Part shown: positions 34,417 to 38,321 of the stretch, piece by piece | Layout: every line of letters begins with the position of its first letter | How positions within the stretch are numbered: position 1 is the stretch's first letter | Assembly: GCA_965215185.1 (NCBI GenBank) | Contig: OZ244034.1 | Coordinates: 2,976,001-3,040,000 of the forward strand | Direction: 5' to 3' | From: Acidimicrobiia bacterium | GTDB lineage: Bacteria; Actinomycetota; Acidimicrobiia; Spongiisociales; ZC4RG35 | DNA length: 64,000 bases | Made by a program: the position numbers and the translations under genes | Notes under the pieces: model-generated | The model's database searches: none | The model's input: the letters and a program-made list of their open reading frames with translations, nothing else | Told to the model about the DNA's origin: nothing

Positions 34417-34752
34417 TGAACCGTTCCGGGTTTCCCGGAGAGTGTTTTACTTGAGTCCAGCTAGCTGGACTCGCTTTTGTTGACGATGGTAGTTGGCCTC
34501 CTTCTCTGCTGGTGGGATGTGTCCTATTGGTTCGAGGAGTCGGCGGTGGTTGAACCAGTCCACGTATTCGAGGGTGGCGTACTCGACCTGGTCGAGGTCC
34601 TTCCACGGAGCGCGTTTGTGGATGAGTTCTGTCTTGTACAGGCCGATGACGGATTCGGCGAGGGCGTTGTCGTAGGAATCCCCAACCGAGCCGACCGATG
34701 GTTCGATGCCGGCTTCGGTGAGCCGGTTCGTGTAGCGAATGGACAGATATTG
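34417..34752 (-). mobile_element. IS3 family 3' half, copy 1, with right terminal repeat
   Basis: QYLSIRYTNRL..SVGSVGDSYDNALAES..WFNHRRL; terminus TGAACCGTTCCGGGTTTCCCGGAG. Confidence 0.88.
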
Positions 34753-34756
34753 CCCA

Positions 34757-36203
34757 GGTTCAAGGGGTCGTTGCAACACTGCCTTGTTTGAGGGAGTGTA
34801 GGTATTCGTTGAGGGCCTCGGCTGGAGTCCTCCAGCCGAGGGTTTTGCGGGGTCGGCTGTTGAGTGCTGCAGCGACAGCGTCGAGGTCGTTGCGTGAGTG
34901 TCTGTGGAGGTCGGTGCCTTTGGGGAAGTATTGGCGGAGCAGACCGTTGGTGTTCTCGTTGGTTCCACGCTGCCATGGACTCTGCGGGTCGCAGAAGTAG
35001 ATGTCGAGGTTGGCCTCTGTGCGGAGTTGAGCATGCTGAGCCATTTCGACTCCTTGGTCCCAGGTCAACGACTTCCGGAGCTGTTGGGGCAGGGTGATGA
35101 TCGACGCAGCGATAGCGTCTCGTACGGCTTGGGCGCCATGGCCGGCGAGAGGGGGCCCGTTGTGGACCCGTTGCTGTTTTCGGTGGCCTGGCATGGGTGG
35201 GAGATGCAACAGCATCGTGAACCGGGTGGTGCGCTCAACCAGCGTCCCGATCGCGGAACTCCGAAGTCCCAGGATCAGGTCACCTTCCCAGTGTCCTGGC
35301 ACTGCCCGGTCGTCGGCCTCGGCGGGGCGTTGGCTGATCATGATCTCGGGGCTGACGAAGGTGCGGCGCCGCTGCCGGGTCCGTGCCCGCGGGACCCGCA
35401 AAGCTCGCCCGGTTCGCAGACACGCCACAAGCTCCCGTTTTAGCGCGCCTCGGCCTTGCACATAGGCCGCCTGGTAGATCGCCTCGTGAGAGATCCTCAT
35501 GGACTCATTATCAGGGAAATCGATCCGGAGCCGCCTCGAGATCTGCTCAGGACTCCACGACGTTGCCCACCGCCGATCAGCTCGCCTTCCGTGACGGCGA
35601 CCCGCCCAGCGCACCTGGGGCCCTGGCACCAGCTCACCATCCGGGCGGGCGATCTGACCACCCAAACGATCCTGCACATACTCACGAAGCTCGTCGTTGG
35701 CGGCCAGCTTCGCGACCTTCGGGCGGCTGGCACGCCGCTCCGCGTGCCACTGCGCTGTCGTTGCCCGATAAACCACACCACGACTACGAGTTGCGGCGTT
35801 GCGCCGCAACTCCCGCGAAATCGTCGACGCGCAACGACCAAGGCGACGACCGATCTCCCGCACCCCCACACCCTGCGCACAGAAGATAGCGATCTCTTCC
35901 CGTTCGGTAAACGACAGATAACGGCCCGACACCGAACCCAGAGAGATCGGCGGCATCCCACCAGCCTGGCGGAACCATCTAGACCCAACCGCCGGTGACA
36001 CCCCCGCCCCGGCAGCAGCGTCCTCGCTCGAGACACCCCCAGCGATCGCTTCCCAGAACCGGACCCGATCCTCACGCCGCGCTTTCGACGGCCGACCAGG
36101 CGACCACAACTGACCCCGCATCACACGAACCGCCTCCCGACGCTTCACAACACTCACCGCAAACCTCCTTCATCACCAAGTGTTGCGACCACCAATTGAA
36201 TCC
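34757..36203 (-). mobile_element. IS30 family element, apparently intact (transposase 34760-36157)
   Basis: YLSFTEREEI, STISRELRRN, WSPEQIS, GHWEGDLI, LTWDQG.EM, PWQRGTNENTNGLLRQYFPK; IRs GGTTCAAGGGGTCGTTGCAACACT / GGATTCAATTGGTGGTCGCAACACT. Confidence 0.93.
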
Positions 36204-36206
36204 GCC

Positions 36207-36542
36207 CAATATCTGTCCATTCGCTACACGAACCGGCTCACCGAAGCCGGCATCGAACCATCAGTCGGCTCGGTTGGGGATTCCTACGACAACGCCCTCG
36301 CCGAATCCGTCATCGGCCTATACAAGACAGAACTCATCCACAAACGCGCTCCGTGGAAGGACCTCGACCAAGTCGAGTACGCCACCCTCGAATACGTCGA
36401 CTGGTTCAACCACCGCCGGCTCCTCGAACCCATCGGAGACATCCCACCAGCAGAGAAGGAGGCCAACTACCATCGTGAGCAGAACCGAGTCCAGCTAGCT
36501 GGACTCAAGTAAAACACTCTCCGGGAAACCCGGTACGGTTCA
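36207..36542 (+). mobile_element. IS3 family 3' half, copy 2, inverted relative to copy 1
   Basis: Near-identical reverse complement of 34417-34752 (336 bp); ends CCGGGAAACCCGGTACGGTTCA. Confidence 0.88.
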
Positions 36543-36712
36543 CATCTCGAAGGTAACCAACGGACCCACCGAAGCCCTCAACAACCTCATAAAGCGGATC
36601 AAACGCATCGCGTTCGGGTTACCCAACTTCGCGAACTACCGAATCCGCGCCCTTCTCTACGCCGGGAAACCCAACTGGGACCTATTGGCCACCGTCACTC
36701 CCCACTGAAATC
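36543..36712 (+). mobile_element. ISL3 family 3' fragment; its terminal repeat is split by IS110 and resumes at ~38191-38199
   Basis: TNGPTEALNNLIKRIKRIAFG..NFANYRIRALLYAGKPNW; end CCCACTGAAATC | (C)GATGAGCC resembles an ISL3 GAGCC terminus. Confidence 0.82.
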
Positions 36713-36728
36713 CACTCATACTTAGAAG

Positions 36729-36910
36729 GTTCCTGGGCTGGGACGGGTCTGACCCAACTGAAATCTGGCCTTGTGCCTTTTCATCGATCTGTCGGCCTGT
36801 TCCCGGCCTGGGGCGTAACCCCCTGACCCGGGGCGGATGTGACCTTATAGGAGCTTTGATCTTCCTCCACCGTGAGTGGCCTGTCCACCGCTTGCCGGGT
36901 CCGGGGATCG
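36729..36910 (+). ncRNA. IS110 bridge RNA candidate with target- and donor-binding loops
   Basis: Stem 36732-36753/36791-36812 encloses ACTGAAATC and TCATCGAT (match the flanks); stem 36820-36843/36883-36907 encloses ATAGGAGC and TGAGTGG (match the element ends). Confidence 0.85.
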
Positions 36911-36944
36911 GAAATGATTCTATCCCGCAGAGGAGGAAGGTGTC

Positions 36945-38175
36945 ATGGGAGAAGATGGTCGGGTTGTGTTCGGTGGGGTTGATACCCATCGTGATACCCA
37001 TGTTGCGGCGGTGGTTGATGGCGCCGGTCGGGTCCTGGGAACGGCACCGTTCGGGGCTGATCCGGTCGGATATGAGCAGATGACCAGGTGGTTCGGAACC
37101 CACGGGCACCTGCTCCGGGTAGGAGTGGAGGGCACCGGCAGCTACGGCGCCGGCCTAGCCCGCTATCTGATGGCGGCGGGCATCGAGGTGGTAGAAGTGA
37201 ACCGGCCGAACCGGCAGTTACGCCGCCAGAGGGGCGGCAAGACCGACAGTGTCGACGCCGAGGCGGCAGCTCGGGCAGCGGCCTCGGGGCAAGCTACCGC
37301 AGTTCCCAAATCTGGTGACGGCCCGGTTGAGTGCATACGGATGTTGTTGGTGGCCCGCCGCTCGGCTACCAAGGCCCGCACCCAGGCCGCTAACCAGATC
37401 CATTCTGTGGCCGTTACCGCACCTGAACAGGTAAAACGCCAGCTCAGAGGTCTCAAGCTCAAGGCCCGGGTTCGGGTCTGTGCCCGCTGGCGTCCCGGCC
37501 AAGCACAGACCACTGCGGCGTACGCGAAGATGGCTCTACGCTACCTGGCCCGCCGATACCAAGCCCTCGACACAGAAATCGCAGAACTCAAGATCGAGAT
37601 CCGTCGCCTCTGCGCCGAGGCTAACCCGGCTCTGTTAGCCGCCAAAGGTGTGGGCCCTGACACCGCTGCCGCCCTGCTAGTCGCAGCCGGCGACAACCCC
37701 CAGCGGATGAAATCGGAACGGTCCTTCGCGGCGCTGTGTGGCGCCAGCCCCGTCCAGGCATCATCGGGACAGACCATCCGGCATCGTCTCAACCGGGGAG
37801 GTAACCGCCAAGCCAACAACGCGCTCTGGCCGATGCGCTACCACCCGGATACGCCACGACGCAGCCACCAACCAATACGTGGCACGGCGCCAGGGGGAAG
37901 GAAAGAACCGAAAAGAGATCATCCGCTGCCTCAAGCGGCACATCGCCCCACAGGTCTACCGACTGCTGACCAACCCGCCACCAACCCCGAACTGCGCCCG
38001 GCTCCGCCGCCGACGTCAACACGCCAACATCACCGTCACCCAGGCCGCCCAACAGCTCGGAACCCACCCCAGCCGCATCTCAGCACTCGAACGCGGCCGA
38101 GACCACAACCACCAACTCGCCAGCCGATACCAGACCTGGCTCCTAACCCACGAACCGGCCCCATCACCGACTTGA
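36945..38175 (+). CDS. IS110 DEDD recombinase with C-terminal XRE-like HTH; frameshift near 37830
   Basis: GGVDTHRDTH, GVEGTGSYG, KTDSVDA, GVGPDTAA, PVQASSG, RLNRGGNRQAN; continues in another frame as EIIRCLKRHIA..RLRRRRQHANITVTQAAQQLGTHPSRISALERG. Confidence 0.88.
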
Positions 38176-38321
38176 CAACCATAGGAGCATCGATGAGCCG
38201 GTTTAGGGGGGGTGCTCTGCCCCGGGAGATCCGCATCCTCGAAGAACTCGGCATGATCAACCCCCAACCCGCCCCCCTAACCAGCGGGAAGTCCGACGCT
38301 TCTACCAAGCAGACCACACCC

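Follow-up and report, generated by a model that had tools for sequence, protein, structure and literature searches.

Insertion sequences (IS) of the IS110 family are said to use the terminal repeats of other mobile elements as landing sites: IS1383 reportedly integrates into the inverted repeats of IS1384 in Pseudomonas putida (a finding ascribed to Muller, Lauf and Herrmann, 2001), and IS4321 and IS5075 reportedly have as their target the terminal inverted repeats found in Tn21-family transposons (ascribed to Partridge and Hall, 2003). Here we analysed a 64-kb stretch of DNA (the window; positions 2,976,001-3,040,000 of one 3.12-Mb contig, its genome labelled G000) holding an IS110-type element whose insertion point lies 8 bp inside the tip of the right inverted repeat (IRR) of an ISL3-family element. 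We consider it very likely that this element is guided by a bridge RNA and entered the ISL3 repeat by site-specific recombination. RNA-guided targeting of another IS family had been proposed in a first-pass annotation of the window; the proposal is supported, and we infer RNA guidance because of the bridge-RNA anatomy of the element and the covariation of guides and flanks over 23 paralogous copies. For IS621, the accessible text of PMC11208160 describes a bridge RNA with two internal loops, a layout that the left end of the present element matches; the accessible text of PMC11208158 gives a handshake rule for the guides, and that of PMC11187229 assigns to the IS1111 group subterminal inverted repeats and an RNA region downstream of the gene.

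Judged by the titles of the two reports, IS1383 is likewise an IS110-family element that targets the terminal inverted repeat of another IS, and IS4321 and IS5075 likewise sit at a constant place and in a constant orientation within another transposon's terminal repeat. The latter two belong to the IS1111 group, whose inverted repeats are subterminal and whose RNA region lies downstream of the gene, whereas the element studied here has neither feature; they had been named as the precedent for this locus, which holds as far as the terminal repeat of another element is concerned, but IS1383 in the repeats of IS1384 is the closer case. IS1384 is listed as a member of the IS5 and not the ISL3 family in the accessible text of PMC5141477. 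A literature search brought up no description of an ISL3 repeat serving as the target of an IS110 element, although Supplementary Data 2 of PMC11208160 might list ISL3-type targets, and ISL3 is not mentioned in a 2026 preprint on expanded IS110 loci. As far as the accessible text of PMC11208160, PMC11208158 and PMC11187229 describes them, IS621 and other IS110-type bridge/seek-RNA elements share with the present one a DEDD and Tnp recombinase, an upstream RNA region and two loops. Like IS621 in that text, the element has a 5' loop strand that reads in the sense of the left half-site and core, a 3' strand complementary to the right half, a fixed second and a free first core base, a handshake-type extra pair and a -35 box in the right end. 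Unlike the IS621 described there, it has an NC core (TC in the donor, CC in the target) instead of CT, a recombinase of 409 aa with a C-terminal HTH_31, a target, known here from sequence alone, that is an ISL3 inverted repeat and not a REP-like sequence, and a left guide acting in two registers within one clade. ISPpu9, ISPpu10 and other REP-targeting IS110 members, according to their accessible descriptions, likewise land in a multicopy non-essential repeat, which is a host repeat in their case and another mobile element in this one. Both the IS110 bridge-RNA mechanism and the landing of IS110-family elements in another element's inverted repeats were already known, and the overall picture is unchanged; what is added is ISL3 as a target family, for which the search gave no earlier report, a clean natural example of the IS110 type (not IS1111) in which guide, empty site and occupied site can all be read, and a small natural set of target loops re-programmed on a common scaffold.

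The left flank of the element had been annotated as the end of an ISL3 transposase, and this was confirmed by its relatives. The 59-aa stump gave no Pfam match on its own and shares 86-93% identity with the 3' ends of four further G000 ISL3 copies, and a full-length relative (genome 2,517,827-2,519,259) encodes an intact 443-aa protein with DDE_Tnp_ISL3 (PF01610, E 1e-57) and Zn_ribbon_ISL3, together with a weak HTH_Tnp_ISL3 just below the Pfam cut-off. The terminal repeats of this relative are imperfect and start with GGCTC (left inverted repeat, IRL, GGCTCTTCGGAAATGAGGGGGGAGT; IRR, as reverse complement, GGCTCATCGGATTTCAGTGGGGAGT); GGCTCTT is typical of ISL3 ends. On the basis of its transposase domain and terminal repeats, the target element is placed in the ISL3 family. 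In the window it is truncated upstream to a 171-bp stump by the end of an IS3-family element, and the bases ACTGAAATCC come after its stop codon, to the left of the IS110 element. The sole G000 ISL3 with an intact gene carries no IS110 insertion, and the ISL3 that hosts the other G000 copy of the element (copy2, 3,102,724-3,104,201) is frameshifted too.

In the open reading frame (ORF) of the window copy, DEDD_Tnp_IS110 (PF01548, E 5.6e-25) and Transposase_20 (PF02371, E 8.9e-16) were detected, two domains that are also present in an intact 409-aa paralog. The ATG is preceded by 231 non-coding nt (36714-36944) and the stop is followed by 16 nt; by our own reading the ends ACTCATACTT and CATAGGAGCATC do not form inverted repeats, and the junctions share just one C. 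With a DEDD and Tnp recombinase, an upstream RNA region and ends that do not form inverted repeats, the element is classified by its sequence in the IS110 type of the IS110 family; the subterminal inverted repeats and downstream non-coding region of the IS1111 group are absent, the non-coding region being upstream. These domains, together with the comparison of the junctions with uninterrupted IRRs, bear out the annotation of an IS110 element within an ISL3 terminal repeat.

The left border reads ...GGGAAACCCAACTGGGACCTATTGGCCACCGTCACTCCCCACTGAAATCC, ending at 36713, and continues with ACTCATACTT, and the right border reads ...CATAGGAGCATC up to 38191 and continues with GATGAGCC (38192-38199); the C of the target at 36713 is found once more at 38191. 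The ISL3-type terminus rebuilt in the first-pass annotation had been written with an optional C. Of 24 uninterrupted ISL3 IRRs, 22 have the sequence ...CACTGAAATCCGATGAGCC, and the optional C is therefore real and the site is AAATCCG; the two remaining IRRs read ..AAATCGATGAGCC, with a single C. The CC was found in both uninterrupted right ends of G000 (CCCCACTGAAATCCGATGAGCC, genome 2519238-2519259, and ..CTGATATCCGATGAGCC; one of the two with GATATCC), and agreement with the rebuilt site extends to 7/8 right ends in the genus (17 genomes, G000 and 16 others) and 15/16 in G041 (Ca. Spongiisociaceae chromosome OZ253564.1, 5.05 Mb, class Acidimicrobiia), three of these 15 having the tip GAAGAGCC; uninterrupted IRLs carry the CC in 3/3 cases. 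The junctions are fixed by an orthologous locus, empty in G012 (L101; ..CTGGAATCCGATGAGCC followed by GCTAAAGCG) and occupied in G002 (L071) by a 21-bp IS110 remnant (..GGAATCC ACTCATACTTGTAGGAGCATC GATGAGCC followed by ACTAAAGCG); in G000, G011 and G004 it holds nested right-end remnants. Insertion thus turned ...ACTGAAAT[CC]GATGAGCC into ...ACTGAAAT[CC]ACTCAT...GGAGCA[TC]GATGAGCC, the second C alone being common to both junctions. An alternative in which the element starts with CACTCAT and the target has a single C (AAATCGATGAGCC) was rejected on the CC of most IRRs and all three IRLs, the CC of the orthologous empty site, the right donor guide reading CC, and the like behaviour of IS3-type and IS3-orfA targets, with the two single-C ends as exceptions. 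The solo remnant of G002 (L071, the same as L126), which consists of ACTCATACTTG plus TAGGAGCATC retained in the ISL3 IRR, looks like the product of a deletion between short TAGG repeats shared by the left and the right end, and contigs with the solo-remnant joint (36723 to 38182) occur in two metagenome runs, X1 and X4.

Recurrence of the insertion was assessed with copies bearing the same guides. G000 has two copies that carry this guide pair, the window copy and copy2; each interrupts an ISL3 IRR, at one and the same base, and identity between the two is 81% over the whole length and 97% in the first 100 nt. A search of the 16 other genomes of the genus yielded no further copy with the pair. 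In G041, 17 copies carry both guides, and the left flank is an ISL3 IRR in 16 of them, so the flanks of same-guide copies agree with the proposed programming for ISL3 repeats in both genomes; 14 of 15 recovered right junctions read GATGAGCC or GAAGAGCC, each then running into different sequence. Throughout the genus, 17 junctions between an IS110 right end and an ISL3 tip were found in 7/17 genomes, with about 11-12 different sequences beyond the tip and none with a reversed-pattern control. Orientation and distance are constant, the right end facing the tip at 8 bp, in all 17 genus junctions and in the 14 ISL3-embedded G041 copies with a recovered right junction. Fragments of IS3, IS30, ISL3 and IS110 are nested around the locus, as would be expected if the locus were an IS graveyard with a random pile-up and a fortuitous guide match; this explanation is exceedingly improbable, given that the same base is struck in at least 11 genus contexts and 16 in G041 and that the reversed-pattern controls gave 0. 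Another 16 IRRs of G041 are unoccupied; about half of its ISL3 right ends (16/32 counted) are thus occupied, which suggests a real effect on the ISL3 population. For the IS110 element, the ISL3 repeat is a multicopy site outside host genes, and the insertion splits the repeat; a safe site for the one and immobilisation of the other may be the consequences, as had been put forward.

These recurrent junctions could also arise by hitch-hiking, if an IS110 element had entered one ISL3 once and the ISL3::IS110 composite had since transposed or duplicated as a unit, the resemblance of the guides being irrelevant. The copies are indeed related, ISL3 tips form the outer border of every composite, and one G041 locus matches the ISL3 end and IS110 of the window together at 97.8% identity across 1660 bp. 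However, two types of same-guide copy, about 82% alike, were found at the same base (the window copy is of one type, copy2 of the other), and two ISL3 sequence variants of G041 are each seen with either type inside and also without an insertion, a pattern that speaks for several separate insertions. Whichever tip they have (GATGAGCC or GAAGAGCC), ISL3-type ends are struck at the equivalent base, an orthologous empty site exists, an IRR split 8 bp from its tip should hinder the ISL3 transposase, and hitch-hiking leaves the guide/flank covariation of paralogs with other targets unexplained. We therefore regard it as improbable.

The search for the junction was extended to public genomes with an 18-mer having one two-fold position, for which we estimate about 35 chance matches in 596 Gb. 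It returned 37 loci: 16 (17 matches) in OZ253564.1, nine further loci in metagenome-assembled genomes (MAGs) with an IS110 right end upstream, and 12 (Streptomyces, Massilia, Acinetobacter and others) that have no IS110 right end upstream and were taken as chance; 26 matches in all carry the right end. L144, on a 1604-bp contig titled Dehalococcoidia MAG (JAAXHR010000031.1), has the same junction in a bin of another phylum, which could reflect mis-binning or transfer. Over about 1660 bp, window positions 36541-38199 are 96.6-97.8% identical to three G041 copies (L166, L156 and L151), suggesting recent exchange between different Acidimicrobiia.

Comparison of 12 paralogous left ends of G000, and more from its relatives, revealed a near-invariant scaffold with two short hypervariable windows, which the consensus fold places on opposite sides of one 13+13-nt internal loop. 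Among 18 paralogs the stem of this target loop is paired in 98.7% of cells, and the whole proposed five-helix structure in 90.2%, against 45-56% with the partners slid. The predicted loops and guides are listed in Table 1 with the other features of the locus. A 9-nt repeat of the flank within the 231-nt left end has a chance expectation of roughly 0.003 (a rough estimate), and, given the family-wide covariation and the recurrence of the junction, the match of guide and flank is far beyond chance. The right target guide covers 6 nt (CGATGA) of the uninterrupted target, its match being given as 5-6 target bases, and the U after it pairs with the donor A at 38189, before the core, in a handshake-like manner. 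Neither the donor guides nor the two element ends vary among paralogs; under the model, and by our own reading, the core-facing bases of the right donor guide equal the core at the left junction in 6/7 paralogs examined. The last two bases of the left donor guide (UU or CU) mismatch the AT of the right end, so that the donor register can be given only provisionally.

Table 1. Position, strand and supporting evidence of the features of the IS110/ISL3 locus (window coordinates)
Feature	Position	Strand	Evidence
IS3-family 3' part (rve_3 integrase core), ending in tip ...GGTACGGTTCA	36180..36542	+	Pfam rve_3 E 2.5e-11; tip 36532-36542
ISL3 remnant: last ~55 transposase codons (..GKPNWDLLATVTPH, stop 36706-36708) and inner IRR up to crossover C 36713	36543..36713	+	86-93% identity to other ISL3 3' ends
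IS110-type element, 1478 bp, ACTCATACTT...CATAGGAGCATC	36714..38191	+	junctions compared with uninterrupted IRRs; orthologous empty/occupied locus
-10-like hexamer CATACT	36717..36722	+	position
Predicted target-binding loop: 13-bp stem (36740-36753 with 36791-36803), 13+13-nt internal loop, 3-bp capping hairpin (36767-36777)	36740..36803	+	consensus fold
Left target guide ACUGAAAUC	36757..36765	+	identical to target 36704-36712 (9/9)
Right target guide UCAUCGA	36781..36787	+	reverse complement of TCGATGA, right junction 38190-38196
Predicted donor-binding loop	36833..36891	+	stem paired in 86.3% of cells
Left donor guide AUAGGAGC	36847-36854	+	identical to right end 38181-38188
Right donor guide GUGAGUGG	36872-36879	+	complementary to CCACTCA(T), left junction 36712-36719; G.T pair at 36719
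Recombinase gene (DEDD_Tnp_IS110, Transposase_20, C-terminal HTH_31), broken by extra G at 37835	36945..38175	+	alignment to intact copies
TTGACA in right end, candidate -35 box of circle-junction promoter; also target of other paralogs (GATTTGACAA)	38172..38177	+	position
Outer 8 bp of ISL3 IRR, GATGAGCC	38192..38199	+	unrelated DNA beyond

Guides and sites covary across the family. Using 25 left ends with flanks from G000 and its relatives (23 distinct; only left ends fitting the search pattern were counted), the left guide matched the left flank at a mean of 8.0/10 positions, compared with 4.77 (standard deviation, sd, 0.30) when guides were shuffled among copies, and the right guide matched the right flank at 4.0/7 positions, compared with 2.14 (sd 0.32), in the 12 copies with a recovered right junction; neither value was reached in 10,000 shuffles. 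Paralogs with matching guides were found in IS3-type terminal repeats (..AAACC[C]GGYRCGGTTCA), in a multicopy segment of the IS3-family orfA, in the GATTTGACAA box of IS110 right ends and in two blocks of IS110 recombinase codons, ..GDRQLN/QAI.. and ..IRCLK/RYIA.. (the latter in our own translation). If instead the recombinase itself read the ISL3 repeat, perhaps through its C-terminal helix-turn-helix (HTH), with RNA complementarity incidental, paralogs with near-invariant ends and scaffolds and differing guide windows would not be expected in correspondingly different sites, as they are observed; moreover, IS621 and ISEc11-type elements are RNA-guided according to the accessible text of their descriptions. 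Such protein-directed choice is very unlikely in our view, even with the extra HTH_31 domain of the recombinase, a full-length copy (L032, G011) lying in an IRR to which its guides do not match, and the likeness, by our own reading, of the right end GGAGCATC to the ISL3 tip GGCTCATC (6/8).

Several observations weigh against a bridge-RNA-guided insertion. The perfect 9-mer of the left guide sits one base out of register: in c1005, for which five empty copies are available, the guide has its last two bases opposite the 2-nt core, whereas in the window copy and in paralogs that target IS3-type ends, for which empty sites are likewise available, the perfect match stops one base short of this. The second core C is then placed opposite the U after the guide, which could be accommodated by a wobble with the bottom-strand G or by one bulged base, and the 14-nt site spelled by the guides in the absence of that C (..AAATCGATGA) occurs in only 2/24 uninterrupted IRRs. 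The first-pass statement that the guides match the site exactly thus stands for the left 9-mer taken by itself and fails for its register and for the right guide with its 5-6 matching bases. Covariation in the stems is weak, with 3 pairs changed on both sides and 37/500 shuffles reaching the covariation score, because the scaffold barely varies, and the shuffle test of guides and flanks overstates independence because the copies are related. An Rfam search returned no matching family, the single weak match being to a snoRNA (E 9.4), and no junction of right end to left end, as expected of a circle, was seen among the contigs of 4 sequencing runs, contigs being prone to drop rare forms. The recombinase of the window copy is itself frameshifted, with an extra G at 37835 relative to copy2.

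Individual copies depart from the rule as well. Two of the 23 distinct copies misfit, L032 (G011) and L048 (G002); L032 is a full-length copy at the same ISL3 IRR base with the guides of another paralog, which match at 3/10 and 2/7 positions, and one G041 copy with the guides of the window copy, L159, sits off the ISL3 IRR. Each of L032, L048 and L159 lies in a site resembling the target of another paralog, and L032 looks like a c1005 scaffold bearing the target loop of c979; cross-mobilisation or loop swapping would explain all three. A second ISL3-type guide in G011 was considered as a helper for L032 and rejected: the only exact match, L108, belongs to a different IS110 subfamily (that of G000 c255 and of G041 L167 and L168) and has another right guide. 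The loop series bears on how bridge-RNA specificity evolves, by point change, modular loop swap or cross-mobilisation, and on the slack in the left-guide register (a one-base shift, U opposite core), which matters for off-target prediction with recombinase tools.

By analogy with IS621, transcription of the left end would start mainly at a promoter that arises in the excised circle (TTGACA, 17 nt, CATACT), the donor loop would hold the joined element ends, and the top strands would be cut after the 2-nt core, whose second base would be a fixed C and whose first might vary between target (CC) and donor (TC). A circle with the junction GGAGCATC followed by ACTCAT would place CATACT 17 nt after TTGACA; no sigma-70-like promoter was found on the + strand in the integrated form. 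Contigs of two metatranscriptome libraries from one study cover 36705-36896, with DNA carry-over possible and RNA ends beyond what contigs can give, and the 5' part of the recombinase is uncovered in both libraries, which is no evidence of absence.

Frame 1 of the recombinase gene runs over 36945-37834, and the real C-terminus continues in the frame of the ORF at 37738-38175, the shift falling after ..NNALW. Intact 409-aa recombinases are encoded by copy2 and by L150 of G041. L150 is the exception among the four aligned G041 copies of the window type, the other three sharing the extra G, and in one metagenome run most of the contig depth has it. The defective variant has spread, and this spread, together with the common guides and donor ends, fits mobilisation in trans. 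With its RNA region and ends intact and its recombinase frameshifted, the window copy is probably non-autonomous, and it could be mobilised by the intact copy2, which has the same guides and donor ends. Programmed frameshifting at 37835 was considered and rejected, since the site CCGATGCGC is not slippery and intact versions merely have one G fewer. The C-terminal XRE-type HTH_31 follows the Tnp domain both in the window (37738-38175) and in L002 (1755-2981), with E values from 3.6e-6 to 2.9e-8.

A broader interpretation of the paralogs can be offered tentatively, and we hold it slightly less probable than its negation. In sponge-associated Acidimicrobiia, one IS110 clade with fixed donor ends and scaffold might swap or mutate a target loop of about 45 nt, so that its paralogs land in conserved sequences of other mobile elements, the target classes considered being ISL3 and IS3-type inverted repeats, the IS3 orfA segment, the -35 box of IS110 right ends and the two recombinase codon blocks. 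Because the donor ends are shared, the RNA of any paralog could move any paralog, and the outcome would be an RNA-guided warfare or hyperparasitism that disables rivals and spares host genes. If true, this would explain both the three copies in the sites of others and the spread of the frameshifted copy. A nest three elements deep was observed at L004 (genome 1,095,836-1,098,940), where paralog c1097 lies in the TTGACA box of the right end of c1098, which lies in an IS3-type tip, itself inside the donor loop region of the oppositely oriented c1095.

Upstream of the ISL3 stump, the IS3-family element is itself disrupted by an IS30-like element; its type of tip, GGTACGGTTCA, is present at 5 uninterrupted places in the G000 genome. 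Two near-identical 3' fragments of IS3 orfB, at 34447-35034 (-) and 36180-36512 (+), lie in opposite orientation around the IS30-like gene (34760-36157, -), and the arrangement (34447-36512) looks like an inversion or a double insertion. At genome positions 2,505,813-2,507,223, the second G000 ISL3 with an uninterrupted IRR is split internally by a 1.4-kb insert with two ORF fragments, which we take, as an impression, to resemble a mutator/IS256-type transposase; the left flank of the IS110 paralog c2345 is a 92.7% match to this insert. At several ISL3 tips of the GAAGAGCC type, an IS110 right end (..CCGATTTGTAAAA.ATAGGAGC) makes up the DNA beyond the tip, as seen at 370,953 and 1,000,652 in G000, L066 in G004, L067 in G002 and L062 in G006, and ISL3 and IS110 copies are therefore nested both ways.

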